Positions 3,071 to 35,712 of a DNA stretch of 64,000 nt are shown here, piece by piece (the stretch's first letter is position 1; the number at the start of each line of letters is the position of its first letter). The position numbers and the translations under genes are program-made. The notes beneath the pieces are model-generated. The model saw only the letters and a list, made by a program, of their open reading frames with translations, did not search any database and was not told where the DNA came from. The stretch covers positions 352,001-416,000 of the forward strand of contig CAWEEQ010000004.1 in the NCBI GenBank assembly GCA_963808235.1. The letters are read 5' to 3'. The stretch is from an uncultured delta proteobacterium. GTDB taxonomy: Bacteria; Desulfobacterota; Binatia; Binatales; Binataceae.

Positions 3071-3129
3071 CGGGCTCTCTGCGAAGGGAAACGCAGGCAC
3101 CCTGAACTAGTCGGATTTGCGGCGCATTG

Positions 3130-4311: not shown

Positions 4312-4372
4312 CGCCGCTGCAACCGGCCGTTATCGACTCGCCTCCACCCTTGCTATTGCGCTCCGCGCATCA

Positions 4373-5431
4373 TCAGTGGATGCAGCTCTGACTAGCCGAT
4401 CCCGTATTGTTGTACCAGATGTTGGTCGAGCAGTGAGGATTGAGATCGACCATGTCGTGCTGATCGGGATTTCCGTCGTTATGGGTAACCGTGACGATAT
4501 TGTCCTTGTCGTTTTTTTCGATCACGATTCCGTTATTGGTATTGCCGGGTGCGCCGGAATTTGTGATGCGGTTGTCGTCGCTCTTGGCGCCGCCGCATTT
4601 CACGGTTCCACAGCCGAGTAATATTCCGGTATCGCCGTTGCCCGAGGTGCCGTTGCAGTTGGAAATCAGGTTGCGCGAAGAGCCCAACAGCCAAAATCCG
4701 TACTTGCCGTTGGAGGAAGCTGACGCCGTGCCGATCGAGTTGTCGGTCGAGCCATCGAGCAAGACGCCCGCCGTGGTGTTGCTGATCGTGCTGAAATTGG
4801 ACATGCGGATTCCCGAACTGTTTTTGAGCATCACGCCGTCGGCACCGTTGTAGCTAGCAAGAAAATCCACCGCGACGCTTCCTTTCGCTCCGTTGAAGAA
4901 GATGCCCGCGGTCGTGTTGCCGAACGTCTGCTGGAAGATGTTGCCGCCGATGTTTTTGAACAGCGCGATGACCGCGTTGTCGCCGTCGTCCTCGATTCCG
5001 ACGTTCCATTGCGTCACGACCGCCTGCGCGTTCGGAAATTCCATACCGTCGATGCCCGCGTCGTCGGCCGGAGCGGTGCTGCCCTCGATTCCGCCTTCGA
5101 CCAGCACATGGGTCGCATTCTTGTCGATAAGGATGCCGATTCCGCTGCCGTTGCCGCTCCCGATGACCGCATTGCCTTGCAAGTTGAGGATCGAATCGCT
5201 GGCGGAGATCTCGATACAGATGGGCTGGCTCGTGTCGCTGGCGCTCAAGTCGTTCTGTACCAGGTAGGTATTCGGTTTCGTGACCACGCATCCGCATGCA
5301 GTGATCGAGGTTGGGCATGAGCCCGGCGGCGCAGCGTTGGCGGCATCAACCATGAGCAGAGAAATCGCCGCAATAGCAAAAGTGAGTTTGCAGGCCGATC
5401 GTAACAGAGCCGACTTGTAGGCTCGTCGCAT
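4373..5431 (-). CDS. Secreted right-handed beta-helix repeat protein (NosD/pectin-lyase-like)
   Basis: Signal peptide ending AANA; repeated N/G-rich turns such as SYNGADGVML and SSNGKYGFWL. Confidence 0.7.
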   Translation of the reverse strand: MRRAYKSALLRSACKLTFAIAAISLLMVDAANAAPPGSCPTSITACGCVVTKPNTYLVQNDLSASDTSQPICIEISASDSILNLQGNAVIGSGNGSGIGILIDKNATHVLVEGGIEGSTAPADDAGIDGMEFPNAQAVVTQWNVGIEDDGDNAVIALFKNIGGNIFQQTFGNTTAGIFFNGAKGSVAVDFLASYNGADGVMLKNSSGIRMSNFSTISNTTAGVLLDGSTDNSIGTASASSNGKYGFWLLGSSRNLISNCNGTSGNGDTGILLGCGTVKCGGAKSDDNRITNSGAPGNTNNGIVIEKNDKDNIVTVTHNDGNPDQHDMVDLNPHCSTNIWYNNTGSASQSCIH

Positions 5432-5602
5432 AGAAAGGTTCCCCCGTGATCACAGCGCGCGACGCGCAAATCAGAATGTCTCGTTGTCCACGACGCGGCC
5501 CGAACAGGCCGCGTTCCCCCTGGTCCCTGCCGAGAGACTATATGCGCTTGGCGCGCGAACCAAATGCGCGAAGCGCTCGGCAGAACATGCGGCGCGCGAT
5601 GT

Positions 5603-6160
5603 TTACGAAGCCTTCTTTGCTCCGGGCAGATAATCGTCGAGCGGCACGCCCAGGCTGTTGAGCGCCCACGAGACAAGGTTGTACTGACCGATCGTAAAGA
5701 CCGCATCCATCATCTGTTCAGTGTTGTAGCGCTCCGCCAGCGTCTTCCAGGTCTCATCCGAGACCACTGAATTCTCGAACAAGTCGTCGGCCGCCTGAAC
5801 CAGCGCCGCGTCGTGGCGGTCCCATCCTTGTTTCGGACCTTTTGAGATGCGGTCGATCTCATCGTCGCTCAAACCTGCGCTCTTACCAATCCGCACGTGC
5901 TGCGCCCATTCATATTCCGCCTGGTTCAGCCATCCGATCCGCAGTATCAGGATTTCCCGATCTCGCGCCGGTAGCGTCTGCTGCGACAGAATGTATCCGG
6001 CGAATCGCGACCAGCTCCGCGCCAGCTTCGGATGCTGCATCAGCACCCTGAAAATATTTACGACCGTGCCATTGACCTTGTTCCGTTCGCCCATCTCGCG
6101 GTCCTCGGCGCTCAGCGTCGAAAAATCGCGGAAGGGAACTCGCTGCTTCCTGGAAATCAT
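5603..6160 (-). CDS. Carboxymuconolactone decarboxylase/AhpD-family protein (no CxxC)
   Basis: LPARDREILILRIG...EYEWAQH motif; GGAGG RBS. Confidence 0.82.
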   Translation of the reverse strand: MISRKQRVPFRDFSTLSAEDREMGERNKVNGTVVNIFRVLMQHPKLARSWSRFAGYILSQQTLPARDREILILRIGWLNQAEYEWAQHVRIGKSAGLSDDEIDRISKGPKQGWDRHDAALVQAADDLFENSVVSDETWKTLAERYNTEQMMDAVFTIGQYNLVSWALNSLGVPLDDYLPGAKKAS

Positions 6161-7190: not shown

Positions 7191-8360
7191 CTAGCTCTTG
7201 TCGTCGCGCTTCAGGGGCCGCGGTATTTGCACGATGAACTCCGAGCCCGTGCCCGCGCCTTCGCTATGCGCCTCGATCGTAGCGCCGTGCATCTCAACCA
7301 GATTTTTCACGACGGTCAGGCCGAGACCGAGCCCCGTACGGCGCGCCCCCGAAGGAACCTCGCCCTGGTAAAAGGTATCGAAGATTTGCGCGAGCTCCTC
7401 AGCTTTGATTCCTGATCCGGTGTCGCGAACGCTCATGACGATGCTGTCCGGCTCCTCAAAGATCCGCCAGACGATGTTGCCGCCTTCGGGCGTGAACTTG
7501 ACCGCGTTGGCCATGAGATTGGTTGCCACCTGGCAGAGTCTCTCCCGATCGACGCGGACGTTAACCGGGTCCGGCGGAAAATTCATTTCCACATTCAACG
7601 CCTTCGCGTTCAGCTCCGGCAGGTTCGACTCGACCCCATGCCGCACGCAGTCTCGCAGATCGACCGTCGAAGGTTTAAGCGTGACCTTGCCAAATCGGAT
7701 CGAATTCAGGTCGAGCAGCTCTTCGATAAGAAAACTCTGCTGGCGGGTCTGACGCTCGATCATCTGCAGTGCCCGCAGTTGCTGATCGTTGGGATTGGTC
7801 GCGTGCAGGCGTTGCAGGCCGAACAGGATCGGCTGGATCTGATTGCGAAGCTCATGCGACAGCATCCCCAGGAATCGCTCGCGCTGAACTTCCATGCTTG
7901 CTACTTTGACGGCCGACTCGTCCCGCTCCTTCTCGGTTTCCTGAACAAGTTGTTCGACCGAACATCTGGCGCAAAGATCCAGAACGTCCATAATAATTTT
8001 CTGTCCCTCGGCCTGCACGGCTTCTTCGACGCCCTTGGACGCGTCGCGCAACACCCCCAGGAATACGCGCCGGAAGATCGTCAACTCCCACATCACGTCC
8101 ATCACGGTGTAGCCGTCAATTCGCCGCTGATGGCCATGGCGGCGGCATGCCTCTGAGATTCGCGATGAATCTTCGCCCCGCAAAACCGCGATCATTGCCT
8201 CGGTAATGGCGGGTATATGATCGGTCAGCTCCCGGTCATTGAGCGCGGCCAGACGTTTTGCTTGTTCGGATTCCCGCTTGGCGGCAGTGCGCCATCGTTT
8301 CAGGATTTGGTTTTCGTGCTTTTCGAGATAATCAGCGACATACGCAGTTTTTGAGGGCAT
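7191..8360 (-). CDS. Cytoplasmic histidine kinase with RsbRD_N-like N-terminal domain
   Basis: H-box LSHELRN, N-box NLMANAVKF, DTGSGI, GLGLGL; N-terminal HGHQRRIDGY; no TM helix. Confidence 0.88.
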   Translation of the reverse strand: MPSKTAYVADYLEKHENQILKRWRTAAKRESEQAKRLAALNDRELTDHIPAITEAMIAVLRGEDSSRISEACRRHGHQRRIDGYTVMDVMWELTIFRRVFLGVLRDASKGVEEAVQAEGQKIIMDVLDLCARCSVEQLVQETEKERDESAVKVASMEVQRERFLGMLSHELRNQIQPILFGLQRLHATNPNDQQLRALQMIERQTRQQSFLIEELLDLNSIRFGKVTLKPSTVDLRDCVRHGVESNLPELNAKALNVEMNFPPDPVNVRVDRERLCQVATNLMANAVKFTPEGGNIVWRIFEEPDSIVMSVRDTGSGIKAEELAQIFDTFYQGEVPSGARRTGLGLGLTVVKNLVEMHGATIEAHSEGAGTGSEFIVQIPRPLKRDDKS

Positions 8361-8458
8361 TATGCACGTTCTGAGTCATGGGACTTCGCGGTATGAAAAA
8401 AACCCTCCCCGGGCGAAATTCGACTGGCAGCTCCCTGTTTTTCCACCAGCGGTAATCG

Positions 8459-8830
8459 CTAGCGGTAGTGGTCGATGATCTCCATCAATCGGTCAATTTT
8501 CACCGGCTTGCGCAGATATTCGTCGATTCCTTCCAGCGGCTCGGCCGGTTGATTGCTCCCCGATACCACCACGACTGGAATGTCGCGAAGGATCGGATCC
8601 GAGGCACGACGTCTCAAAAACTCCCGACCGTCCAGCACCGGCATAGACAGATCCAGCACCACCACGCACGGGAATCGCGGCGTCTTCTTCAAAACGTCAA
8701 GCGCGATCTGGCCGTTCTCGGCCTCCAGCACTTGATAGCCGTTCGCATCGAGCAACTCGGACAATGTCTCGCGGATATCCTCGTCGTCGTCGACGAGGAG
8801 CACCGCTTCTTGCTCGATTGCGTGCTCCAT
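8459..8830 (-). CDS. Single-domain response regulator (CheY-like)
   Basis: LLVDDD, LDLSMP, KP motif. Confidence 0.92.
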   Translation of the reverse strand: MEHAIEQEAVLLVDDDEDIRETLSELLDANGYQVLEAENGQIALDVLKKTPRFPCVVVLDLSMPVLDGREFLRRRASDPILRDIPVVVVSGSNQPAEPLEGIDEYLRKPVKIDRLMEIIDHYR

Positions 8831-9196
8831 TTCGCAAAGCCTCCAAGGTGATGATTAAGCAATTATCAAGCCGGAAAATTCGCGTGCCTTTTACTAGGTG
8901 TTCGCTGATTTTCACACGGATAATTACCCTCTCCGATACAGACCAGCGCAGGTGGGCGAGGAAAAATCGAATTGAGTCGAACCGTCCTCATTTACGCGAA
9001 GTTCTTGTTAATCAGTGACCCGAACGCGCGATTTGATTTGCAATATCAATCTCAACCGCGCTATTCGTTCTACCTCAAGAATTCGTCATCAATTCAATAG
9101 AGGGGTCATAGTTCCATGCGACGTTATTTAGCTAGTCGACGGCGCCTCATGCAGTGCGGTTCGTCTCGAGTTCGTTAAACGAGACTGTTTAAGCTT

Positions 9197-10729
9197 TTGG
9201 ACACAGAATCTCAATTTGATGCGGTCATTGTCGGGGCGGGACCTGCTGGTCTTACCGCCGGCTACGAACTCGCACGCAACGGGCATCGTGTGGTCGTCCT
9301 GGAGCAGGACGCTCAATACGTCGGCGGGCTCGCGCGCACGATCCAATATCAAGGCTTCCGATTCGACATCGGCGGTCATCGCTTCTTCTCCAAGAATCAG
9401 GAGATCGATTCCTTGTGGACCGAGTGGATGGGCGAGCGGATGCGCCTTCGCTCGCGGCTTTCGCGAATCCACTATCGAAACAAATTTTTCAAATATCCGC
9501 TCGAGCCGTTCAACGCATTTCGAAAGCTCGGTCCGCTCGAAGCGATCTCTTGCATGGTCAGCTATCTCCGCGCGAATCGCAGCGGGGCGGAGCCGCGAAG
9601 CTTCGAAGACTGGGTGGTTCGCGCATTCGGGCGCCGCCTATACGAAACCTTCTTCCGCAGCTACACGGAAAAAGTCTGGGGAGTTCCCTGTTCCGAGATT
9701 AGCGCTGATTGGGCTGCGCAGCGGATCAGAGGATTATCGCTCCTCTCGCTGATGCGAACTCTGCTGCCCGCCAGGGCGCGCGGCAAAGCGGTGGTGAAGA
9801 CTCTGACCGAGCATTTCCGCTATCCGCCCCACGGCCCAGGCGAAGTATGGGAAAGGGTCGCCGGCATCATCAAGGGCAAACGCGGCGAAGTGCGCATGGG
9901 CGAGCGGGTGATCTCTATAGCCTGCAATGCGGGGCGCACAACTTCGATCACCACCGAGAGCCTTTGCGGCCGTCGCACTTACGTGGCGGATCATTTCATC
10001 TCCACGATGCCACTCGCGCAATTGGTATCCGCGCTCGATCCTGCTCCGCCCGATAGCATTGTCGCGAGCGCGTCGGGTCTCCGTTATCGGGCTTTCATAA
10101 CTGTCGCGTTGATCCTCGACCAGGCGGACGTCTTCCCCGACAACTGGATCTACATTCACGATCCTGACGTGAAGGTCGCGCGTATCCAGAACTTCAAGAA
10201 CTGGAGCGCCGAGATGGTTCCCGATCCGCGCTTGACGATGCTTGGTCTCGAATATTTCTGCTCGGAGCGTGACGCGCTGTGGTCGGCCTCTGATGAACAG
10301 CTAATCGCAATCGCCCGCAAGGAAGTCGCGTCGCTTGGGCTTGCAGAGAGTTCCAAAGTGATCGATGGGACGGTTGTTCGCCAGGGCAAGGCGTATCCGA
10401 TGTACGATCACGAGTATCGCGCCAACGTGGCCCGAGTGCGTGCCTTCCTCAAGCCGGCCGCCGGCAACCTGCACGTCGCGGGCCGGAACGGGATGCATAA
10501 GTACAACAATCAGGATCATGCGATGCTCACCGGGCTCATGGCGGCGCGAAATATAATGGGCGGCTGCTTCGATCCATGGCGGGTCAATTCGGACGCAGAG
10601 TACCTCGAAGAAGAAGAGGGGAATGAGGAGTCGAACGGCCGCATGCTGCCGACTCCAATCGACGCGACGCCGCTGGAGGCTCCCGATCTTTCAGCGCTCG
10701 ATCTGACGCCTTCCGCGCGCGACTCCTGA
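9197..10729 (+). CDS. FAD-dependent oxidoreductase (protoporphyrinogen-oxidase/UDP-galactopyranose-mutase-like family)
   Basis: GAGPAG, FDIGGHRFFSK, YTEKVWG, GRNGMHKYNNQDH. Confidence 0.85.
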   Translation: MDTESQFDAVIVGAGPAGLTAGYELARNGHRVVVLEQDAQYVGGLARTIQYQGFRFDIGGHRFFSKNQEIDSLWTEWMGERMRLRSRLSRIHYRNKFFKYPLEPFNAFRKLGPLEAISCMVSYLRANRSGAEPRSFEDWVVRAFGRRLYETFFRSYTEKVWGVPCSEISADWAAQRIRGLSLLSLMRTLLPARARGKAVVKTLTEHFRYPPHGPGEVWERVAGIIKGKRGEVRMGERVISIACNAGRTTSITTESLCGRRTYVADHFISTMPLAQLVSALDPAPPDSIVASASGLRYRAFITVALILDQADVFPDNWIYIHDPDVKVARIQNFKNWSAEMVPDPRLTMLGLEYFCSERDALWSASDEQLIAIARKEVASLGLAESSKVIDGTVVRQGKAYPMYDHEYRANVARVRAFLKPAAGNLHVAGRNGMHKYNNQDHAMLTGLMAARNIMGGCFDPWRVNSDAEYLEEEEGNEESNGRMLPTPIDATPLEAPDLSALDLTPSARDS

Positions 10730-10749
10730 GCGAGTAGCGCTCCTATTCG

Positions 10750-11802
10750 ATGTCCTTGGCTAGCAGCATGGCTGAACCCCGCGCCACGCCGGATGAACTG
10801 AGCGTCGCTATCGTCATTCCAGCTCGTAACGCCGGGGCGACGCTTCCTCGGAGCCTGGAAGCCTTGCTGGCGCAGATTTCCGGCGATGACGAAGTTATCG
10901 TCGTGGATGATTATTCCACCGACGATACCAGCGAAGTCGCCGCCCGATTCAACGTGAAGGTGCTCAAGCTGCCTCGGCACATGGGAACCTCGGCCGCGCG
11001 CAACCGCGGCGCCGAAGAGACCCGCGCTCCGCTGCTGTTCTTCTACGACGCCGATGTTGTACTTGCGCCCGGAGCGCTCGCCTACGCGAAGGCGACCATG
11101 GGGCGGCGTCCGGAAGTGGGTGCGATGTTCGGTTCCTATGACGACGATCCGGACGCGCTGACCACGGTTAGCCGTTTCAAAAATCTCGCCCATCATCACT
11201 TTCACCAGCGTTCGAACGTGGAAGCGAGCACGTTCTGGGGTGGATGCGGCCTCGTCCGGCGCGATCTGTTCGTAGCGGCAGGCGGCTTTGACGATGAACG
11301 GCGCGAGATGGAAGACGTCGAACTCGGCTATCGATTGATCGGGCGTGGGGTCCGAATCGTCCTCGATCCGGAGCTCCAGGTAAAACATTTGAAGAAATGG
11401 ACGCTGAGATCTCTCGTCACGACGGACGTATTCATCCGCGCAATCCCGTGGACGTTGCTATGGTTGGAGCGCGGGACGATGCCCAACGATCTGAACCTCG
11501 CAACCGATCAGCGACTGGCCGCGATGATCGCATGTGCACTGGCTATAGCCATTCCCACCGCCATATTTTTGCACCAGGTCTTGTTAGTAGTCGCGCTATT
11601 ACTCATCGCAGCCTTCTGGCTCAATCGGGATCTGTATGGTTTATTTTTCAGAAGGGCAGGGCTCTGGTTCGCCGTCAAGGGATTCTTACTACAGCAGCTA
11701 TACTACTTGTATTCTACTTTCAGCCTCGCCACCGGCATCGCCATATACTACTCACGGTCGTTCAGGCGGCGTCTTGAAGCTGCACCAAAGCGAACCGAGT
11801 GA
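10750..11802 (+). CDS. Glycosyltransferase family 2 with C-terminal TM helices
   Basis: VIPARN, VVDDYSTD, DAD, GGFD, EDVELGYRL. Confidence 0.9.
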   Translation: MSLASSMAEPRATPDELSVAIVIPARNAGATLPRSLEALLAQISGDDEVIVVDDYSTDDTSEVAARFNVKVLKLPRHMGTSAARNRGAEETRAPLLFFYDADVVLAPGALAYAKATMGRRPEVGAMFGSYDDDPDALTTVSRFKNLAHHHFHQRSNVEASTFWGGCGLVRRDLFVAAGGFDDERREMEDVELGYRLIGRGVRIVLDPELQVKHLKKWTLRSLVTTDVFIRAIPWTLLWLERGTMPNDLNLATDQRLAAMIACALAIAIPTAIFLHQVLLVVALLLIAAFWLNRDLYGLFFRRAGLWFAVKGFLLQQLYYLYSTFSLATGIAIYYSRSFRRRLEAAPKRTE

Positions 11803-20781: not shown

Positions 20782-20886
20782 GAGATACTCGATGAAGGCG
20801 TGCCGATGAGTCCGCGCAGTGCTACTCTCAATCGGCGCTCCGGAGTTCGAGTCTCCAACGGCTCGAGAAGCGAAGCCAAGACTGAC

Positions 20887-21267
20887 ATGGGGATTCCACT
20901 CATCAAGGTGAGAATTTCGAATCCGCGCAATCCACGCCGAGGCGTCGAGCTTGAATTTCTGATCGACACCGGCGCGATCTTCAGCGTCGTCTCCGGATCG
21001 ACAGCGCGCAAGCTCGCACTCGCGAAACTCGAACGCAAAGAGTTCACCCTGGCCGACGGAACTCACCGCGCTTATGACGTCGGCGAAGCATTCTTCGAAC
21101 TTGGCGACTTGCGCGGCACCTCAAAGGTCGTCTTCGGCCCCCCGAACGTAACTCCTCTGCTCGGAGCCCTGACCCTGGAAAGCCTCGGCTTGATGGTGAA
21201 TCCCGTCACCCGCGAAGTCTCCCCGATGCGCCTATTCCTGGCCTCGTCCCGCCGCCGCGGCCGCTGA
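20887..21267 (+). CDS. Retropepsin-like (clan AA) aspartyl protease
   Basis: FLIDTGA catalytic motif, LADG flap, LLGALTLE. Confidence 0.85.
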   Translation: MGIPLIKVRISNPRNPRRGVELEFLIDTGAIFSVVSGSTARKLALAKLERKEFTLADGTHRAYDVGEAFFELGDLRGTSKVVFGPPNVTPLLGALTLESLGLMVNPVTREVSPMRLFLASSRRRGR

Positions 21268-25094: not shown

Positions 25095-27055
25095 ATGCGT
25101 CGGCTAGTCGAAGCCATCATTCTGTTGATCTGCGTAGCGTGGCTCTGCGGGCCAACGTGCGCGTCCGCGCAGACCAACCTCGCCAGGAACGGTGACCTCG
25201 CGAGCGGCATCGCCAATGCTCCCGACGATTGGTACGCACTCTCTTCAGACAAAAAGCTGGGCACCTTCTCATGGACCAAAACTCCCGGCGACGGCGGCGT
25301 CCTCGGAATCAATAACCTGAATCAGAATCTCGCGAGCTGGCATCAGGCGCTGATGCTCCCGCCCGGCACCTACGAAGTAAGTGCCGAGGTCCGCGTCGAA
25401 GGCGCCCAGCTAAGCGGTGGCGGCGCAAATATATGTGTGGAGACCTACGATGGTATCCCTCTCATATCGGATCGTCTCCACGGCACCACCGACTGGAAAA
25501 AAATTTCGTTCCTGTTGAAGGAAGATCGATGGGGCGATACCACCGAGCTACTCTGCCAACTCGGAGTCGCCGGTCATCCCGACAATGGCCGCGCGTCGTT
25601 TCGAAATATCAAAGTGATCGCGCTTGCGAGTCCGCCGCATACCCACGCGCTCACCTACGACCTTCGCGCGATTCGCGAGCAGTACCAGTCGCCGGCTAGT
25701 GCCCGTCGGACGGCGATGGGTACCTTCGTGCGCTCGGCATCCTGTCCGGGCTCGCGCTGATAGCTATCCTTGGATGCGCCCTGTTCGCAATCTGGCAGCC
25801 GGCTCTCGCGGCCGGACGTTCCGCATGGATGCTCGCCGCGGCTGCGATGCTCGCGATCACGGTCATCAAATTCGCCGCCCTGTTTCATTTCACCGGCTTC
25901 TACTGGGACATCTGGGCCAAGACCAACCGCGCGCTGCTCGCCGTCGCGCTCGGCCCCGGGCGAATTTACGATCCCGGCCTGCCCGTCGACGCTTATCCGC
26001 CCGGCTCGCTCTACCTTCTCTGGTTATCAGGATGGATCGGCCGCGTGCTCGAGCCGAGCGCCAACGGCTTCCGCGTGATCGTCGAGACCCCACCGCTCGT
26101 CGCCGACTTACTGATCGGTCTCACTCTATACTTCGCTGCATGGCGCGACGGCCGCACGATACGCGCGATCGTCGTGATGCTTCTGTTCGCAGCCAACCCG
26201 GCATTGATTTTCGACACCGTGATCTGGGGCCAGAGCGATTCGGTAGTCGCACTCCCGATGCTGGCGGCAGCCCTGTTGATACTGGCAGGCCGCAATCGCC
26301 TGGGATGGTCCGCGGCCGCGATCGCGATTCTCGCCAAGCCGCAAGCGCTAACCATCGCGGTGCCGCTCGGACTGTGGACTCTATTGGATGCGGGAATAGT
26401 GGAATGCGGATGGAGCGCGGCGGCATTCGCTGGCACCCTTACACTTGGAATCCTCCCATATCAGGTCGGCCACTCATGGGACTGGATAATCAACGTCTAC
26501 AAGGATCTGGGCACCCGCTTCAGCGAAGCTTCGGTAGGCGCGTTCAACTTCATGGGACTGATCGGCGGGATGAACACGCCCGACACCGACAAAATCTTTG
26601 GCGTGTCGTATCGAGCACTCGGATTCTCTCTGACCGCCGTGGTCTACCTGATCTCCTCCTACCTGGTATGGCGCGCGAAATCCGCCGGCTCTGCGATGCT
26701 CGCGACGTTCATCGCGCTATTCGGCTTCTTCCTGTTCGCCCCGCGCATCCACGAGCGCTACTTGTACTACCCGGTAGTCCTACTGATCCCCATCGCACTA
26801 GAAAGCCCCTTCCTAACCACAATCTTCGCCGGATTAAGTGCCACGTTCCTATTCAACCTGATCTACATAAAACACCTGACCGACACGTCGACATATTTCC
26901 CCACTCACCCAAACCCAGCTCTTATAACAGCCGCGATGATCAACTTGACTATATTCATCGCCACAACCACCTACGCCCTACTAGGCAACCCACCGGTCTT
27001 TTCTTCACGCCTCTCCCTTCGGGAGAGGTCGTCGCGCGTAGAGCGCGACGGGTGA
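25095..27055 (+). CDS. Exported carbohydrate-binding-like domain fused to a GT-C membrane glycosyltransferase; frameshift at ~25731
   Basis: Signal peptide plus NLARNGD jelly-roll domain; one missing base links to a TM helix and the GT-C motifs DAYPPG, WGQSDS, KPQA, HERY. Confidence 0.75.
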
Positions 27056-27142
27056 GGGCGCCCGCCCGTTCTCACCGCTCGCCACAAATCATGACGCCCC
27101 GGCCGCGCGTCCGCGCGCCGGCCCCACCTCCTGAAAAGACTA

Positions 27143-27166
27143 GTGGCACGGGCGTCCCTGCCCGTG
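27143..27166 (+). repeat. GTAG/GTGG-type REP palindrome
   Basis: GTGG-CACGGGC-GTCCCT-GCCCGTG. Confidence 0.6.
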
Positions 27167-27628
27167 GATGAAGGCGACTCAGTCGCCCTCCGCCTCCAGG
27201 ACGTAGCGTTCTTCCGATGAAGCGCGTTCTTTTTTTGTGTCATTCTGAGCGCAGCGAAGAAACCCGAATCTTTCTCGGCGCAAACGACTTCGACTTCACT
27301 TGGGGCACGCGAAGCCGAACTGCTCCGAATTCACATCTCCTGGTCGCAGAGAACTGTGCGCAACCAGACCGACCCGACGCCCCTAATAGCCTCTCCCTAA
27401 CAGGGAGAGGCCGACGCTCGTCTTCGAGCGGCGGGTGAGGGTCCGCATCCCAAATTCCGCACACAACCCAAGCCGAGACTCCATGTTCAAGGAGCGGGAA
27501 TCGGCGCCCGCCGCGCTCATGCCTCTCCCTTCGGGAGAGGTCGCGCGCGACACGCTTGTCGCGCGCGGGTGAGGGCGCCTGCGTCGAGCGGAATGTGCGC
27601 GTAGGCTAAGTCTGACTCACTCAAAAAA

Positions 27629-28507
27629 TCACCCCTTCAAAAACTTCAAGATCATCTCATTCACCAACTCCGCCCGCTCCCGATGCACAAAATGCCCGGC
27701 CCCCTTCACCACCTCGATCCTCAACCCCTTAGGAAACAACTTCTCCATCCCCTCGAGCGTCTCCGCCCCGATACATCCGTCATCGCGCCCATGAATCATC
27801 ATCGCAGGCACATTGATCGGCGGCGACGCCATCGATGCCATCTGCTTCGCATCAACCGGCATCTTGAATGCGGCTCCGAGCGTCGCCCGATAATATCCGA
27901 GCGCCGCTTCGAGCGTGCCCTTGGCGCGAAAACATTTCTTCAACTCTTCCATATCCTCGGATGCCCACTTCCACCCGGGCGACCAGTCGGCCCACAACTT
28001 CTCGAGAAACGCGAAGTCGTTGGATGCGACCGCGGCGTCGGCGATCGCAGTCTGAAAAAAGAACATGTACCAGGAGCGCCGCTGCTGCGCGTAGTTGATT
28101 ACCAGCGCCTCGAAAAATTTCGCCCCATACGGAACCGCAGCGGTGACCAGCTTGATGACCCGATCCGGCGCCGCCGCCGCGCCGTAAGCCGCGACCGCCC
28201 CCCAATCATGTCCAAACAAGATCGCGTCCTTGTATCCGAGTGCCGCAATCAGCCCGAGCGCATCCTCGGACAACACTGCGGAATCATACCGCCCGTCCGG
28301 CGCCCCCTCAGTCGGCGCGTACCCCCGCATGAACGGCGCCACCACATGATATCCCGCCCCTGCAAGCGCCGGCATCTGATACCGAAACGAATGCGCCGTA
28401 TCCGGAAACCCATGCAGGCACAAAACCAACGGCCCCTCCCCCATCTCCAGCACCGTGAAGTTGAGATTAGATGCCCGCACCACCCGACTAGTCACTTGTG
28501 ATCCCAT
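27629..28507 (-). CDS. Alpha/beta hydrolase (epoxide hydrolase-like)
   Basis: LHGFPD, GHDWGA nucleophile, HGRDDG, GAGHF; the longer track start runs through REP DNA. Confidence 0.9.
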   Translation of the reverse strand: MGSQVTSRVVRASNLNFTVLEMGEGPLVLCLHGFPDTAHSFRYQMPALAGAGYHVVAPFMRGYAPTEGAPDGRYDSAVLSEDALGLIAALGYKDAILFGHDWGAVAAYGAAAAPDRVIKLVTAAVPYGAKFFEALVINYAQQRRSWYMFFFQTAIADAAVASNDFAFLEKLWADWSPGWKWASEDMEELKKCFRAKGTLEAALGYYRATLGAAFKMPVDAKQMASMASPPINVPAMMIHGRDDGCIGAETLEGMEKLFPKGLRIEVVKGAGHFVHRERAELVNEMILKFLKG

Positions 28508-28996
28508 AATGCCCAACGCATACCCCACCCCCCGCCCAATCACAAAGCCCGAATTCCGAATTTGCCTCGCCCTGACAGGGAGAGGCCGACGCGCAGCGTC
28601 GGGTGAGGGTCCAACTTCCAAATTCCGCGCAGCTCCATTCTTTGTGTCGTCCCGAGCGCAGTAAAATGCTCGGAGCCTGCCCTGAGTATTCCCGAAGGGC
28701 GAAGCGATGTTCCTTTGGTTTCTATCTGTCATCCCGACCGAAGTGGAGCGACCCGGAACCGTCCCCTCTGAACCTCGAACTCTTAATCTTTTAAGGGAGC
28801 GAAACCCACCATGGATTTCGCGCTTCCCCGGTGAATGCGATGCGGGCGGCCTCTACCATGAACTTGCGCTTCGAACGATTCAGCGCGCGCGCCTTTTTTT
28901 CGTGTCTCCCTGAGCGAAGCCAGGAATCCCGGATTCGCCTCTACCGCTTTGTTGCGGGAGAGGCGCCGCGCCACCGGTGAGGGTGTTCTTCCATGG

Positions 28997-29051
28997 GAGA
29001 GGATGCCGGCCGCTTGGCGTCCGTAGCTGAAGGTGCAGCCGGCATTCTCTC
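28997..29051 (-). terminator. Strong hairpin right after the island's last gene
   Basis: GAGAGGATGCCGGC...GCCGGCATTCTCTC inverted repeat; no clear U-tract. Confidence 0.45.
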
Positions 29052-29054
29052 AGG

Positions 29055-29525
29055 TTAGGCCTTCGGTCGACTTAGGTCCTCTGTCCAGACCTGACACATA
29101 GAATCCACCGCAGGTCGAAAGAAAAGCTTAACGATTAGGACCGCGACTACCGCAGCGATTGCAGGTGCAAGTCCGAGGTAGGCGACCAATAAAGCAGCAA
29201 TCGCGGAACCTACGTCTTCCTTACCGAGTTTGAACGCGGCGACTACTTTCTGCCGTTCAGCGGTATTTTTAGTGTCGTCGCCGCAGACAAGATCGTGGCA
29301 TTGCTTGTTGATGCGGCCGAAGAAGAGCTTACCAAAGCGGCGTAAATCGTCCATAGGACCCATCAATGGTGCGTCGTAGAGAAGGTCCGGGGCAAATGAA
29401 CCCGCAATCATCGGGTCCGCAGAGATTCCTCTGCTCCTAATCCCCAACTGCTCGTAAAGCTGATCAGCGTCCGATTGAAAAAGAGAAGTGACGGCAGGTC
29501 TGGCCAATTCGTGTAGTTCCGCCAT
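29055..29525 (-). CDS. Hypothetical 156-aa protein with C-terminal hydrophobic hairpin
   Basis: GAGGAA RBS, 13 nt after the CHAT gene stop; VGSAIAALLVAYLGLAPAIAAVVAVLIVKLFF; three Cys. Confidence 0.8.
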   Translation of the reverse strand: MAELHELARPAVTSLFQSDADQLYEQLGIRSRGISADPMIAGSFAPDLLYDAPLMGPMDDLRRFGKLFFGRINKQCHDLVCGDDTKNTAERQKVVAAFKLGKEDVGSAIAALLVAYLGLAPAIAAVVAVLIVKLFFRPAVDSMCQVWTEDLSRPKA

Positions 29526-29538
29526 GGTGAATTTCCTC

Positions 29539-32151
29539 CTAGAGATCAGTATCGGATCGCATCTTTTCCAAAATCTCTTCTGATTTAATCGGAGCTGGAT
29601 TCAACCGAGTGGTAGACGAACCAAATAGAGTATACGCTAGGCCCAGCGCATTGCCCTTTTTCATGAAATCCAGCCTGGTCTCCAGAATCGCTTCGCCGGC
29701 TTCCGCCCCGAGAGTCCACTTCCAGAGAAACTCTTTCGCGAAATGATGACCAAACAGAGAACGGGTGGAACATTCTGTTCCAACTACAGTGGACGCGCCG
29801 CGATTGATAAAAAAATGAATAAAGCTCTCGGCGAGAGATGGCGTTACCTGAGCTGATTCACACATGTTCAGGAACACCAACGGCTTATTGTGCAACTCGA
29901 TACTGTCGCCTAAGCGATAGAGCTCCCCTAGCAGCAGCATTCCGTTGGTCAGTTTGATCCATGAGTCATCGGAAACGTACTGCTTCTTGGAAATTTCCTC
30001 GACAGTATCGCTCCAACTTTTCTTCAGAAGCGAATCTGCTGGCAGATCTTGGAAAAGCTTGACAAAGTCTTCCTCAGTGACACCGAAGCGCGCAGCATTT
30101 GGTACCTTTGTGTGGCCGTGCGCGAAAAAATGAATCAAATGCCCGTTTCCTGACTGCAGGTATTTGAACGCGTCGGTTTTGTCATTGATCACGTTAGGCT
30201 GTGCTATCGAATCCGGACATAACTCAGCCAGACGTTGCAGTAGGTGCCTTTGCTTTCCGGACTCAGAAAACTGCCATAGTAGCAGCGTGGCTTGAAAGGG
30301 TTCGTCCTTATTCAGCGGCTCATCGACGGCGGTCGCTCTATTGCCCGGAATGCGCTGCTCAACGACATATCGTAGTCCCCAAAGTCGGCTGTAGTCAGGC
30401 TCAGAAGGATCTCCGTCATAGAGGAAATTCCAGGGAAGTACAAATTCAGGAGCGGATCCATGCGTGAGAGACTTGAATAATCGCACCGTGTGCGAGCGGA
30501 TGTTTTTTGAGCCATTCGCCAATTTTGTACAAGGATCCGGTAACGTCGTAATTGAAAATTTTGGTCCACAGATCGCTGCCTAGTTTGATAAGTTCTTGCG
30601 TACCTTGTGTAAATTTGTAGAAATCCGAACATTCCACACCGCTGTCGTAGCAAGGCCACAACGTAATCTCGAGCAACGTCTTACGTACCGCCAGGAGTCT
30701 GTCTTCCAAGTCATCTTTAGGAATCTGGACAAAACCAGTCAACGCCAGAAGGCGACCCTCTTCATTCGCATCACCGCTTTTGTCTTTCCGCAGAGTGAAG
30801 GTCAGTCTGTAACCTTGGTCGGTATGCGTTATGTCAACGTGCATGCTCGTGGCTTCACAACTTCGAGATCCTCAAAGGACTGTTCGACGCGCCCCTGCGA
30901 AAGATGCACGGCATCTGGCAGGTTGAGGTGTGAACGCTCGTCGGATTCATAAGGTCCTACGGCTTCAGCCCTGATCTCCATCACTTCGAGCAGGTTGAAC
31001 TCGTAGTAGAGCCGTACTCGCATTGACAGAAGATCTTGTGCCGCGAAAGTCGACCTCATTGGCTCAATATCAGCGAAGACGGCGTTTTGCTTCGGACTTG
31101 TACCTCCAGAAACCGGCAGGACCAGCTTCTGCACAGGATTGAGGATTTTGAAATCGCCAGGGTGTGCTTCTATTGTAACCAGGATGTCAACAGGGCCGGC
31201 TTGCTTCGGTTCGCGGATGGGTCTGTGCTTCTCTTCCGTCTTCAAGCCTTCGGGCCTGTGGCCTACAGAAACCTCCAGTTGGTACTTCTTGCTGACACGT
31301 AAAGGATTCTTTTGGTTGAGTTCCTTTCCGCGAACCCCCATGTCGCTCTGCAAGTAAAAGATAAAGTTTGCGTAGCGCGAAGGAGGAGGCTCTTTAGGTG
31401 GTTGAAAATCGGTCGCCGCCTGGTCGTCGGCATCCGACTGACTGCGCGTTTCTGACGAGGTGGCCCCAGGTGCCGCTTCCGCGGCTTCGTCGCCGAACTT
31501 AGCCGCCACTTCCGAGCCGCCTTCCTCGCCAATCTCAGCTGCCCTCACGCCGCCCACGCCGGCAACCGATACGTATTCCAGTTTGTCCTTCATTTGGCGG
31601 AAGCGAGTGTACAACTTCGAAGCGGAAGCTTTGTCGTTTTCAAGTAGCGGCGATTCCGCGCGAGCACCCTCTATCCCAATTTCTGGGAAGAGGCGCTGAT
31701 GCCATTGAAAAGTGTTCCCAAGTATTCGTTCCGTGTGCTCTGGAGCAAAGTCGTGGAACTCCACGAAAATCTCATTCCCCAAGGAAATGAAGTCGAACGT
31801 ATTCCTTGCGGTCTCAAGCCTATTGAGCAAATTGAGAGTCTCGACGAATTGCTCCCAATTCCGCCGGGTCGTGGACCGCTGAATCTGCTCAATGTTCTCG
31901 GAAAGTTTATCTAGTCCGGAATAAACAGTCTGAATGATCAGGCGATCGCGCAAGCGTCGAGAAGGACGCCGAGATAGCCAATCAATCGCTGTGTAACCAA
32001 CGGAGGAAGAGTCGGCCCAGAGTAACCCCTTTTCCAAGAGGCTGTCCCAAAGCGTTGCCTCCAGGGCGCCGTCGATGACCGTATCGCGAAGCCGCTTACG
32101 TGGCGGGCGCTCATGCCGTGAACCACGAATACGGAACTGAAATGCCCCCAT
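29539..32151 (-). CDS. CHAT (caspase-HetF) domain protease, ~870 aa, split by frameshifts at ~30845 and ~30470
   Basis: Three overlapping ORFs join with single-base insertions (KPR|MHVDIT and IIQVS|THGSAPEFVLPWNFLY); LPW motif, HFFAHG catalytic His, VFLNMCES catalytic Cys, GASTVVGT, LGLAYTLFG. Confidence 0.82.
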
Positions 32152-32951
32152 CGTCTCGTCTCCAGTCCGGGATCCTCTCGTCGTTTGGCAGCCGTGAAAG
32201 TAGCTCTATGGCGCTCGAAAGACAACGCGCGCTCATTGACTTCCGGTTGACACACCCCACGCCTCTCCTTGGCCTCGTTCTGGATCCGCTTGGATCAGGA
32301 AGCTCGCTCGCCCCACCGTACCCTGCTATCCGGCCCCTGCCCAAGGAAGTGTGAAACCCATGGGGGGTTTCACTACAATCAAGTTCTTCTCTCTCACGGC
32401 TGATCTCTGGACAGCTGAAGGCGCCGGCATCGAGCTGACTTACGCGCAGGGCAGGGTGGACACCGGGGTGGTCCTTCGACTCCGCAGACTTCGCTCAGGA
32501 TGACTCAATAATCGGAACACAAACTAACAAGAAATCACCGGCACAAAGCAGAACCCGCAAACAGCAACTTTCCTCCTCTAAACCCCTTCGAACAGGCGCT
32601 CCGCGCCGCATCTTCATTCCTCACTCAGGTGCAGGGGCTGGCCCCTGCCGAAGGAAGCCACCGTGGGTTTCACTACAATGAGTTCCGATCTCTCCGACCC
32701 CGTCTCACGCTCTTTGTTCTCTGTGGAACATCGCTGAAATTTAAATCGCGATCCCTTGTAGCGCACGGCACCGGTATCCTGTAGTGTCGAAGTTCGCGAC
32801 GGCAGCACATTGCGCTCCCCGCCTCCGACTCTGACGGAATCCCAGTAAAAAAAGGGAAAAGTGAAAATGTGCTGATGCTGGCGGTTGCCTGACGACGCTT
32901 GCGGGTCCTTAGGCGAGCTGAAGCATCATCCCCCCGTGCAGCCAATCAGGC

Positions 32952-33932
32952 ATGGCAGCGGCGGTGTGCCACGAAAACGAATATGACCGGTGGGAGAGGC
33001 GAATGGCAGCAGCTTTCAGGACGTCGAGCACGATTGAAAACACAAAGACCGCGCCGTGGGAGATGCCGTGGTGGCATGCCTTTCCCGCCCGCGATGCGTC
33101 CATACTGTTCTGGGTCTTACTGATACACATCACGGCCGCCGTCGGGCTCGTCCTCTATCCGCTCCCCGGATGGCGCGTGCTTCTCGGCGCGATTGCGCTG
33201 GTCTTCATCGGCGGACTCGGCACCACGGTCGGTTATCATCGCGCGATTGCGCATCGCTCGGTCACGCTCAATCCATGGGCGCGCGGAGTGCTGATTTTCT
33301 TCGCGATGTTCAACGGCTCGGGCGCGCCGACTACGTGGGCCGCCGGCCATCGCCTGCATCACGCCAAGGCTGATACTCCGGACGACATCTCGAGCCCCAT
33401 TTGGGGCGGTTTCTGGTGGGCGCATCTGCGATGGCTATGGCAGGCAGGCGAGCCGCCGGTCGATCGCTACTGCCCCGATCTCAACGGTCTTTCGTATCGC
33501 GCCTGGCGATGGTTCCAGGTTCCGATTCTGACGCTTTCATATCTGGGCGGTTTGTATTTCAGCCCGGTCGCGTTTTTCTGGCTCGGCGCGATCCGCCTAT
33601 GCTTCGGGCTGCACGCGCAATGTTTCGTCAATAGTGTGTGCCACACCGAACCGGGAATCGCGATCGGCCAGGATTCCAGCCGCAACGTAAAATGGCTCGC
33701 GCTGATGCATTTGTTCCAGGGCGAAAACTGGCATCGCAACCATCACGCGCGGCCCGGCTCAGCGCGTCTCGGATGGACCTGGCGCCAGCCCGACGCCGGC
33801 TACCTGCTGATCCTGGCGTTGGAGAAATTCGGACTTGCGACCGACGTCCGCCACGGCACTCCGCACGGCAAGAGTCGGCAAGGCTCGATGGAACCGGTAG
33901 ATCCCGCAGAAATCCTCGATCCCGCTGCCTGA
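32952..33932 (+). CDS. Membrane fatty acid (delta-9-like) desaturase
   Basis: His boxes HRAIAH, HRLHH, GENWHRNHH; VNSVCH. Confidence 0.9.
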   Translation: MAAAVCHENEYDRWERRMAAAFRTSSTIENTKTAPWEMPWWHAFPARDASILFWVLLIHITAAVGLVLYPLPGWRVLLGAIALVFIGGLGTTVGYHRAIAHRSVTLNPWARGVLIFFAMFNGSGAPTTWAAGHRLHHAKADTPDDISSPIWGGFWWAHLRWLWQAGEPPVDRYCPDLNGLSYRAWRWFQVPILTLSYLGGLYFSPVAFFWLGAIRLCFGLHAQCFVNSVCHTEPGIAIGQDSSRNVKWLALMHLFQGENWHRNHHARPGSARLGWTWRQPDAGYLLILALEKFGLATDVRHGTPHGKSRQGSMEPVDPAEILDPAA

Positions 33933-34022
33933 TCGCGAACCTTTCCGGACGTTCACTTTCTGCTCAAGAAAAGAGCGTAACCCGCTCCGCCTGCCTGCGT
34001 ATTCCATGATTAGGGGAACACA

Positions 34023-34139
34023 ATGAACACTGTGGGCTTTGCATTCGCGGCGATCATCTCAACGATCATAATGTTCGGGACCGTGATGGCGGCGCATGCG
34101 AATGCCGTCTCGTCGGTCCTGGGCGTGTGGATCTTTTGA
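34023..34139 (+). CDS. Small hydrophobic 38-aa protein
   Basis: MNTVGFAFAAIISTIIMFGTVMAAHANAVSSVLGVWIF; AGGGGA RBS; fills the intergenic gap. Confidence 0.5.
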   Translation: MNTVGFAFAAIISTIIMFGTVMAAHANAVSSVLGVWIF

Positions 34140-34154
34140 TCTGTTCGCGACGCT

Positions 34155-34595
34155 TTAGTCAGGGACTTTCGCGGCGAGGTTCAGCAGTTCCTGCAAAGTC
34201 TGATTGAAGCGGTAGAACTTGTCCTCGCGCAATTGATCGGTCGATTCGAGCCACAACTCCTCGCCCACCAGAGCAAGCGAACTCAACGTATGCCGCAGTT
34301 GCGGGCGGCCGTTCGCGGTGATCTCGCCGAGCATTCGATCCCAGATCTCGCGCTTGCCGCAAATGACGAAGTCAGGGTCGTACTCGTTCAGATCTTCGAC
34401 CGGTTTCGCCTCGGTTAGTTGATAGCCGTCGATCACCAGGCCAACGATTTGATCGCCGCCGTTCGACATGTTGTTGGGAACGACTCGCACCGCAAATCGC
34501 GTCTCGGCGTAACCGAGCCGTCGGAAGAGTTCACCCTCGGCCTGCATCAGTTGGCCGAGGGTGATGAACCAGCGTGAATCAGGAAATGAGGGCAT
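34155..34595 (-). CDS. SCP2-like (sterol carrier) domain protein
   Basis: FPDSRWF N-terminus and DPDFVICG..IW, typical of SCP2-like folds; overlaps the upstream gene. Confidence 0.55.
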   Translation of the reverse strand: MPSFPDSRWFITLGQLMQAEGELFRRLGYAETRFAVRVVPNNMSNGGDQIVGLVIDGYQLTEAKPVEDLNEYDPDFVICGKREIWDRMLGEITANGRPQLRHTLSSLALVGEELWLESTDQLREDKFYRFNQTLQELLNLAAKVPD

Positions 34596-35712
34596 CGGGT
34601 GCTTCGAAGAGTTTGTTGAAGTCAGTCGGCAGGATGCATCGCGGACGCCGGTCGAGTCCGGCCGAGTCGCATCGCTGCAGATATTCGTGGACGATTCGGC
34701 GCCACAACTGTCCCTGCAATTCCATCCCCTTGTCGAAGTTTTTGATTCCGCCGCCCATCAGGATCGCCATCGGCTCGACCGCCTCGGGCACGCTGAAGGT
34801 CTCGAGCAAAATCCGCTCGGCGTCGTCGAGCTGTTCGTGGAGTTCTTCGGCGACAGCGGGATTTGCCTTGAGCTGCGCGCGCAGATGCATCGTGCCGAAT
34901 CCGACGTGGCGCGATTCGTCCTGCATGCATCGCCGGAAGATTTCCTGATCGACACGGCTCGGCGCGATGAACTCGCCCTGGCGGAACATCGTGAGCACGA
35001 ATCCTTCGCCGAGCAATTGGAGGCGGCCGGTCTGCGCGGAGAAGCTCGGGCAATCGAAGATTCGTTTCAGCGAGAGCTCGCTCAGCACGCTGGCTTTGCC
35101 GAGACCGCCGCCGTTGGCGAGTGCGCGCTTGCGGAACACGTCCATGTGCCGCGCCTCGTCCATCGCCTGCGTGGCGAGAAACATTTTCACTTCGAAGTAG
35201 TCGTGATTCATCTGACCCATCCATCGCGTCGGCGCGTCGGCCGCGATGAACTCGACCTCGGTCAGAAAAGTGCATAGCTGGCACATCGCGCGCTCGAGGT
35301 CGTCGGGCAACGGCTTCAGCTCCGTCCACGGGATGTCGCGCGCCGAGCTCCATTGCCGCGCGACCGCCTCTTCGTACAACTCGGAAACGTTGTCGGCCCA
35401 GCACTCGGCCTTTTCGTTGATCGTAAATCCGAGCGAGGGCAGGCCGTCGGGAATCATCGCGCCGCGCGGCGCCATCGAGCGATGCGCTCCGCCGTGCTCG
35501 GGCACGATTCCGTAGCTGCCGATCTCGATGTCCTTCAGTCGGAGTCCGAGGTTGCCGGGCTTGGCGCGCACGCCCCATTCGCCCATCTGGTCCATCCAGC
35601 CGAGGTCAGGAGTGCCTGACTGGTAGAGCTTTTGCAGATAGACCGAAGGTTCAAGCTTTACTTTAGCTTCCGAACCGACCCGTTCTTCATCCTTGATGTG
35701 CACCGCACCCAT
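34579..35712 (-). CDS. Ferritin-like diiron carboxylate protein
   Basis: LTEVE, DEARH, GEG, DESRH paired ExxH motifs. Confidence 0.85.
   Translation of the reverse strand: MGAVHIKDEERVGSEAKVKLEPSVYLQKLYQSGTPDLGWMDQMGEWGVRAKPGNLGLRLKDIEIGSYGIVPEHGGAHRSMAPRGAMIPDGLPSLGFTINEKAECWADNVSELYEEAVARQWSSARDIPWTELKPLPDDLERAMCQLCTFLTEVEFIAADAPTRWMGQMNHDYFEVKMFLATQAMDEARHMDVFRKRALANGGGLGKASVLSELSLKRIFDCPSFSAQTGRLQLLGEGFVLTMFRQGEFIAPSRVDQEIFRRCMQDESRHVGFGTMHLRAQLKANPAVAEELHEQLDDAERILLETFSVPEAVEPMAILMGGGIKNFDKGMELQGQLWRRIVHEYLQRCDSAGLDRRPRCILPTDFNKLFEAPDALIS

Follow-up and report, generated by a model that had tools for sequence, protein, structure and literature searches.

The 64,000-nucleotide (nt) stretch of DNA analysed here (the window: positions 352,001 to 416,000 of contig CAWEEQ010000004.1 in assembly GCA_963808235.1, from an uncultured delta proteobacterium of the family Binataceae) carries on its minus strand a pair of adjacent genes, of which the upstream one (gene 1) encodes a large CHAT-domain protein and the downstream one (gene 2) a small protein predicted to be helical and to contain a hydrophobic hairpin (Table 1). 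The two genes are separated by a spacer of 13 nt between the gene 1 stop codon (29539-29541) and the gene 2 ATG (29525), and this spacer contains AGGAGG. A preliminary description of the same DNA, which had been made from the letters alone, saw here an AT-richer two-gene island and read it as a candidate protease-activated defence module. Our comparison with related genomes agrees with the island: the guanine-cytosine (GC) content drops to 0.49-0.55 over 29000-32000 compared with 0.58-0.65 in the flanks, and in the two same-genus genomes G317 and G204 the sequences that match the flanks (window 27675-28511 and 32758-33939) lie only 66 and 59 bp apart, so that window 28512-32757 has no match between them in either genome. 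Because of this GC dip, the absence of about 4.2 kb between conserved flanks in both same-genus genomes and the sporadic spread of the genes, we regard the pair as a self-contained, horizontally acquired two-gene operon in an inserted island. Window 20000-42000 contains no transfer RNA gene, and scans of the locus for promoters and terminators returned matches at shuffle level only. A 23-nt imperfect inverted repeat around the island (28897-28919 and 32489-32511; 78% complementary) was judged to be due to chance.

Table 1. Features of the two-gene locus and its surroundings (window coordinates; P0028 is the closest intact homologue of gene 1, and X1 is a public sequencing run).
Feature	Position	Strand	Remarks
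Gene 1, CHAT (separase/Csx29-like) cysteine protease, predicted	29539..32151	minus	~870 aa when read through; three open reading frames in the window
Gene 1, first piece	32151-30829	minus	440 aa
Gene 1, second piece	30844-30446	minus	132 aa
Gene 1, third piece	30522-29539	minus	327 aa
N-terminal helical region (~residues 1-170)	31640..32151	minus	candidate sensor or recruitment part; variable in the family
Acidic low-complexity linker	~31420-31640	minus	follows the N-terminal helical region
Conserved beta-rich middle domain and helical connector	30460..31420	minus	P0028 ~229-520; starts at the RYAN motif
CHAT catalytic domain	29539..30460	minus	His in FFAHGH (675-680), Cys in LNMCES (761-766), read-through numbering
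Frameshift site 1	30847..30848		window one base short relative to X1 contig ('A' inserted after 30847)
Frameshift site 2	30462		window one base extra relative to X1 contig
Gene 2, small all-helical protein	29055..29525	minus	156 aa; candidate membrane effector; PDC-M35B superfamily
Inserted island	28512..32757		~4.2 kb, between the alpha/beta-hydrolase and fatty-acid desaturase genes; from same-genus comparison and GC dip
Alpha/beta-hydrolase gene	27629-28732		flanking gene
Fatty-acid desaturase gene	32952-33932		flanking gene

Gene 1 appears in the assembled sequence as three open reading frames (ORFs), the second of which lies in a different frame and the third again in the frame of the first. 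The third ORF matches the Pfam CHAT family (PF12770) with an E-value of 2e-6 and 27.9 bits against a curated cut-off of 24, and the same family was matched in the intact homologue P0028 (836 amino acids, aa) as well as at the loci L003, L004 and L023. The first two pieces had no Pfam match, none of the ORFs matched NCBIfam and PADLOC matched none of the three pieces. As a stand-in for structural comparison we used the AlphaFold2 (AF2) model of P0028, which is 55% identical to gene 1. This model has a mean predicted local distance difference test (pLDDT) score of 79, with most of residues 225-836 above 90, and consists of strands (229-447), helices (449-520) and an alpha/beta domain (528-817), preceded by 222 residues of low confidence that are helical apart from a disordered part (159-222). 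A Foldseek search with the model returned 52 PDB chains at E≤0.001 with separase (5fby_A, 3.6e-10 over 549 columns) and Csx29/TPR-CHAT (8eex_B, 4.1e-10) first, and with the CHAT anti-sigma factor DdvA (8rw5, 2.9e-8) and SAVED-CHAT (8tl0_I, 9.6e-6) among the others. For the beta-rich middle domain the search gave nothing beyond weak matches with chains of the complement macroglobulin type. Among 58 aligned homologues, H651/G652 and L734-N735-M736-C737 (P0028 numbering) do not vary in any sequence, and neither does R229 in the middle domain. The helical N-terminus (at low confidence), the acidic linker, the beta-rich domain and the CHAT domain with intact His and Cys of the preliminary description are thus borne out, the last by the Pfam match and the conserved FFAHGH and LNMCES motifs, while for its 'TCAD7-like' label of the middle domain there was neither a Pfam match nor a paper with the term. 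As judged from sequence and model, gene 1 encodes a CHAT protease of several domains in which the His/Cys dyad is intact and for which proteolytic activity is predicted.

The N-terminal region of gene 1, which we take to be lineage-specific, is 47% identical to that of P0028 and had no family match in Pfam, NCBIfam or PADLOC; its first 190 residues also had none in the Atlas. Searching with P0028 residues 215-836 retrieved 96 clusters having the ~620-aa beta-rich plus CHAT module, and the N-termini ahead of this module differ widely. Many consist of HEAT or ARM repeats or of TPR, and others carry EAD7 (P0030), TIR_2 (P0196), Peptidase_S8 (P0191 and P0230) or the GTPase domains of EF-Tu (PF00009, PF03143 and PF03144 in P0250, P0253 and P0255). 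Exchanges such as those involving EF-Tu, Peptidase_S8, TIR_2 and EAD7 may represent swaps of a bait or a sensor. No full-length relative of the protease was found among the 400 genomes of a phylum sample, three of which match only the CHAT core (~726-830).

Two single-base shifts had already been assumed in the preliminary description in order to read gene 1 as one protein. With P0028 as a tblastn query, the change of frame fell at window ~30844-46 and again at ~30459-64, with identities of 47%, 56% and 65% over the successive pieces, and the alignments of intact homologues (796-911 aa) run through the window frames in the order 2-1-2. We then compared contigs from four public sequencing runs with window 29000-32300. 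A 927-nt contig from run X1, which is possibly the window's own sample, spans 30187-31113 at an identity of at least 99% and lacks both frameshifts, its differences from the window being exactly two indels and two substitutions. Over all X1 contigs, substitutions were found at 29252 (in the small gene), 30427 and 30542 besides the two indels, and these could reflect either a sister strain in the run or further consensus errors in the assembly. Contigs from run X2, which belongs to a separate study, cease to fit at 30461 and 30848. When both X1 indel differences were applied by script, a single 870-aa ORF resulted, which aligns with P0028 in one high-scoring segment pair over residues 16-857 at 54.8% identity. 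Since an independent contig lacks both shifts and the 870-aa ORF is restored, assembly consensus errors or a strain variant are likelier than decay, the outcome that the preliminary description had tied to real frameshifts. Gene 1 is therefore probably functional in the population, and what this assembly would lead one to annotate as a pseudogene is in all likelihood intact.

The product of gene 2 begins with 57 residues that include eight acidic and three basic ones and end in a coil (43-57), continues with an amphipathic helix (58-81) and contains a hydrophobic stretch at ~102-135 with a mean Kyte-Doolittle value of 2.0-2.5. Its AF2 model (pLDDT 91.2, predicted template modelling score 0.88) has nine helices and no strand, and the helices 102-117 and 121-135 form a hydrophobic helix-turn-helix. 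In an alignment of 27 family members (A1), C81 and C144 are invariant (27/27) and an APAIAA motif in the hydrophobic helix-turn-helix is nearly so; across a broader set of 116 sequences C81 alone is invariant, and C144, W147, G65 and A124 are conserved in at least 90%. Neither Pfam nor NCBIfam holds a family for the small protein, and its neighbours in the Atlas are unnamed 'hypothetical' clusters without a common Pfam family. Comparisons of fold likewise stayed at a low level, with a best Foldseek E-value of 0.26 (globins), a best VIA-align Z of 4.3 and a best E-value of 0.19 in a profile search of the PDB. The ORFs and the hydropathy profile bear out what the preliminary description had listed for gene 2, that is its start 13 nt after gene 1, its 156 aa, acidic N-terminal segment, amphipathic helix, Cys residues and hydrophobic hairpin. 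The resemblance to saposin-like or circular-bacteriocin helices that it had also noted was not confirmed, as EntV136 (Z 3.9) and saposin-like folds (Z 3.1) both scored at noise level in VIA-align. That the protein would not be a gasdermin agrees with the strand-free model and with the lack of any gasdermin match for gene 2 in Pfam, NCBIfam, PADLOC or the fold searches. According to the model, gene 2 thus encodes a small protein made up of helices, two of them in a hydrophobic hairpin, which is folded into a soluble-looking bundle and is not a gasdermin.

The small protein belongs to a large and scattered family. A set of 5.8 billion proteins contains 27 close clusters, and a profile search of 1.84 billion representatives returned 632 at E≤0.001, 446 at E≤1e-10 and 92 at E≤1e-30. 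Within the phylum, it was found in one of 400 other sampled genomes and in 3/351 and 2/351 genomes of two further samples, with the centre genome counted in each, and it is absent from both same-genus genomes and from two other genomes of the same family. The record titles of five loci on genome contigs name Solibacteraceae, Omnitrophota, Methanoperedens BLZ2, Bathyarchaeota and Acidobacteriota. No match was found by tblastn in collections of plasmids and phages, and scanning viral contigs with alignment A1 revealed no relative.

To the window and these five genome-contig loci we added four loci on metagenome contigs, one of them without an upstream flank, and those from the phylum scans (G239, G539 and G608). 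Flanks were readable at 12 loci, bacterial as well as archaeal, of which nine (the window, L002-L006, L009, L010 and L023) encode a homologue of the middle and CHAT domains directly upstream of the small gene on the same strand, with a gap of 10-83 nt in the eight loci other than the window. The upstream proteins of these eight match P0028 over ~211-826 with E-values from 1e-60 to 3e-129, the one of L009 being cut by the contig end. As the genes beyond the pair differ in every locus, no third gene is conserved. At the three exceptions the small proteins are the most divergent ones (30-37% identical to that of the window), and at one of these loci, L015, a papain-family C1 peptidase is encoded 245 nt downstream of the small gene. 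Hence the link between small protein and protease that the preliminary description had proposed stood at the nine loci with a CHAT module and, with a papain-like enzyme, at L015, and did not hold at two loci without an adjacent protease. A homotypic adaptor arrangement, with a domain common to both proteins, was rejected as BLASTP between the pair found nothing. Predicting a complex of P0028 residues 215-836 (A3) with the small protein (A4) gave a score of 0.00, which counts neither way.

Further links of the small protein were revealed by PADLOC, in which gene 2 matches three models of the candidate system component PDC-M35B (5.7e-11, 4.7e-8 and 4.3e-4). The alignment covers only residues 66-149, the C-terminal 85 residues, and PDC-M35B is matched by all 27 members of the small-protein family. 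The other component, PDC-M35A, of ~216 positions, matched neither the three gene 1 pieces (E≤1) nor five intact upstream proteins (E≤0.1). It has just two matches in this genome, both elsewhere on the contig, and the one that was checked is an HtrA-type protease, whose trypsin domain it hits with 2.9e-9 and which is also matched by the PADLOC trypsin-protease models RT-Protease_XI, LmuA and Avs1b. From this match to a trypsin domain, the catalogued PDC-M35 would combine a trypsin-like protease with a distant relative of our small protein. As far as the accessible text of the source goes, PDC systems are 145 candidates selected by their embedding in BREX, DISARM and type I restriction-modification loci (bioRxiv 10.1101/2024.01.29.577857), and a search of the literature for the name PDC-M35 found nothing. 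In addition, the small domain occurs in fused forms, which we saw among the 150 listed representatives of the family. P0037 (1247 aa) carries a Phage_lysozyme domain and three tandem C-terminal copies of the small domain, P0132 (1069 aa) a Phage_lysozyme domain and three matched stretches that amount to about two copies, and P0134 and P0139 (390 and 397 aa) Amidase_2 with a single copy after it; P0162 combines two copies with a weak match to a pesticin-type lysozyme. In P0169, the small domain follows an N-terminal region without a Pfam match. Going by these sequence matches, the small domain appears linked with three unrelated protease folds (CHAT, trypsin-like and papain-like) and with cell-wall hydrolases, which a membrane-breaching module fits better than a partner of a single enzyme, and the hydrolase fusions would fit a membrane or lysis role.

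The pair shares features with several known systems. Like PDC-M35, as far as that system is described in the accessible part of its source, it is a two-gene unit of a protease and a small hydrophobic-hairpin protein; the A partner of PDC-M35 is, however, trypsin-like with ~216 positions, whereas here it is an 870-aa CHAT protein. Since PDC-M35A finds no match at the locus, the pair is not PDC-M35 by the components that PADLOC defines. In the available portion of their description, bacterial gasdermin operons (Johnson et al., bioRxiv 10.1101/2021.06.07.447441) likewise place a gene for a caspase-like or other protease beside one for a membrane-active effector, for which gene 2 is a candidate here, and show interchangeable protease types around one effector family and a sporadic, island-like distribution. 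In contrast, the candidate effector of our pair is all-alpha with 156 aa, and its activation by cleavage is only proposed. The Craspase of type III-E CRISPR systems, in which Cas7-11 acts with the TPR-CHAT protein Csx29 that cleaves Csx30, is similar in that the protease has Csx29 as one of its best matches by fold, that an N-terminal repeat or sensor region precedes CHAT and that the adjoining gene encodes the presumed substrate. It differs in that the N-terminus of the window protease is not TPR; moreover, none of the 18 neighbouring ORFs matches any PADLOC model, Cas included, so that no Cas7-11/gRAMP was seen among them, and a repeat search of 27000-34500 gave only scattered two- or three-copy repeats in place of a CRISPR array. 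The small protein is presumably unrelated to Csx30 in size. Separase, the best fold match, shares the His/Cys dyad, but is a eukaryotic cohesin protease of ~13% identity with a different beta-rich middle domain and N-terminus. Colicin pore domains and holins offer a working analogy for the product of gene 2, which is likewise small and helical, has a hydrophobic hairpin at its centre and shows muralytic links in relatives, although it has fewer residues than a colicin pore domain, has no sequence or fold match to a solved pore-former and has no endolysin beside it in the window. Models of BovA, the CHAT protein of the single-gene defence system Borvo, did not match the window pieces at E≤1 and gave marginal values with homologues of gene 1 (0.018-0.031), apart from P0250 with 1.8e-5 over ~100 residues.

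Taken together, we propose that the variable N-terminal region of a cytoplasmic CHAT protease would sense, or be recruited by, an infection cue, that the activated protease would cleave the small protein, most plausibly in its exposed coil 43-57, and that the freed hydrophobic hairpin would enter the cytoplasmic membrane, so that the cell dies. This would follow the abortive-infection logic of a protease with a gasdermin, but with a different, all-alpha effector, and would serve anti-phage defence. To this whole chain we assign a probability of roughly 45%. The defence-type N-termini of the protease family (TIR, EAD7, HEAT and TPR), together with the candidate status in PADLOC, point to conflict systems. 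Overall, the preliminary description is partly supported: its anatomy of the locus was right, and its core idea, release of a membrane effector by cleavage, stands as a proposal. We found no published account of a CHAT and small-protein pair or of the small-protein family, although one may exist in subscription journals or closed supplements.

Several points weigh against the proposed chain. The hydrophobic helices of the AF2 model have just 15-16 residues each, which is short for transmembrane spans, that the hairpin is buried in the helical bundle is an assumption, and neither Foldseek nor VIA-align matched the model to a known pore-former fold. The fusions to hydrolases imply that the small domain can work without a protease, and two of the divergent small genes lack an adjacent one. 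At L012, the nearest candidate is a CHAT-AAA_35 protein 2.4 kb away; at L024, the small gene follows a gene for a VIT-VWA protein and the one protease in its vicinity is a subtilase encoded 1.9 kb off on the opposite strand, maybe by chance. Furthermore, the 18 neighbouring ORFs of the window that PADLOC left unmatched form a housekeeping environment and not a defence island, and PDC-M35 is itself listed as an untested candidate in the accessible text of its source (Payne et al., bioRxiv 10.1101/2024.01.29.577857). Finally, the assembled window copy is frameshifted, and the shift-free 927-nt contig has a depth of 3.74 with two further substitutions and maybe stems from another strain.

These last points would also suit a decaying pseudogene, in which the indels are real, the protease ends prematurely after 440 aa and the cassette has ceased to work in this organism. 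Both shifts are indeed present in the assembled sequence, and the contig that lacks them is shallow and possibly derived from a sister strain. We nevertheless hold decay to be the least probable of the explanations considered, as the 2.6-kb frame is stop-free apart from two single-base indels and still 55% identical to P0028, the X2 contigs stop fitting at exactly both sites, as expected if they are indel-free, and gene 2 remains intact. A programmed-lysis or envelope-remodelling device is a different matter: here the small protein would make lesions in the membrane as a holin does and the CHAT protease would time a release that serves the liberation of contents, development or kin conflict and not phage defence. 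The Phage_lysozyme and Amidase_2 fusions, the weak pesticin-type lysozyme match, the VanY and phage-type lysozyme genes that adjoin the small gene of L012 in convergent orientation and the position of the window locus outside any defence island would all fit such a device. Yet neither the window nor any of the eight other CHAT-paired loci has a muralytic gene alongside the pair, the searches of phage and viral collections gave no relative, and the TIR, EAD7, HEAT and TPR N-termini and the PADLOC candidate status favour a role in conflict, so that we consider a lysis device quite improbable.

Alternatively, the small protein might not be the effector at all, but a membrane tether, a regulator or a securin-like pseudo-substrate inhibitor of a protease that kills or signals by cleaving other cellular or phage proteins. 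There is precedent for such cleavage of other proteins in the caspase-like proteases of type IV Thoeris and in SAVED-CHAT cascades. Moreover, the CHAT fold is closest to that of separase, an enzyme which is restrained by a small inhibitor, and also near that of DdvA, a CHAT-containing membrane anti-sigma factor. The small protein itself looks compact and well folded (pLDDT 91) and is no obvious pro-toxin, and the shortness of its hairpin helices for transmembrane spans would also fit this alternative. A dedicated inhibitor of one protease is, however, hard to square with partners of three unrelated protease folds and with protease-free fusions to lysozymes and amidases, and the lack of sequence similarity between the products of the two genes speaks against it as well. 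We therefore judge this alternative unlikely, while leaving it ahead of the other two.

If cleavage-released killing by the small protein holds for the window, it could extend to its relatives. In this broader and more tentative view, the >600 clusters (at 50% identity) of the small-protein family would represent an all-alpha executioner of bacteria and archaea that is independent of gasdermins, is kept as a soluble bundle and is released by a CHAT, trypsin-like or papain-like protease. Its tandem reuse would let lysozymes and amidases reach the cell wall, and the CHAT partner would be a modular sensor with swapped N-termini, including HEAT, TPR, TIR, EAD7, subtilase and an EF-Tu-like bait. 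To our knowledge, protease-triggered membrane death has so far been tied to gasdermins. A second, structurally unrelated family of protease-controlled effectors would thus show that the logic of a protease plus an executioner is wider than gasdermin, and would provide a mechanistic hypothesis for the PADLOC candidate PDC-M35. In that case, the swappable N-termini, EF-Tu-like ones included, would offer a handle on what CHAT sensors detect. Moreover, the fusions that join the small domain with cell-wall hydrolases suggest that it is a holin-like module of a new kind.

The surroundings of the small gene at other loci have features of their own. At the archaeal locus L023 (G539), the HEAT-CHAT and small-protein pair lies, unlike in the window, in a defence-island-like setting between genes at L023:1893-3914 and L023:7366-10422, whose products are a NERD and UvrD helicase protein (PADLOC C3a187, 3.9e-59) and a UvrD-PD-(D/E)XK protein matching GajB models (8.2e-93). 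Further CHAT genes surround the pair at L005 (Bathyarchaeota, G404; 3540-4229 and 8251-11328), where a 229-aa CHAT-only ORF (6.3e-47) lies upstream and a 1025-aa TPR-CHAT protein is encoded downstream, together with two TPR-only ORFs. L012, which encodes the most distant relative of the small protein, has a neighbourhood that resembles conflict genes (2733-5732 and 9877-11586), with a YhaV-type toxin, two DUF488 genes, a DuOB-domain gene, a DNA methylase and CHAT-AAA_35 on the contig.

Apart from the two genes, the window contains short intergenic elements of ~40-75 nt at 32334-32384, 32582-32658, 27229-27274 and 28561-28621, some of which are palindromic (GCCTCTCCCT...AGGGAGAGGC). They flank the hydrolase gene and sit between the island and the desaturase gene. 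Since the element at 32334-32384 has dozens of copies, 85-96% identical, scattered in the same-genus genomes G317 and G204, they look like repetitive extragenic palindromic (REP) sequences or miniature inverted-repeat transposable elements (MITEs). Two overlapping minus-strand ORFs beyond the desaturase gene, 34155-34595 (146 aa) and 34579-35712 (377 aa), have no Pfam or PADLOC match; their DNA is absent at the syntenic site in G317 and G204 and has relatives in the same-family contigs G263:C6 and G174:C61. Furthermore, a plus-strand ORF among metabolic genes at 20800-21267 (155 aa) gave weak retropepsin-like matches, to gag-asp_proteas (4e-7) and Asp_protease_2 (4.4e-7).

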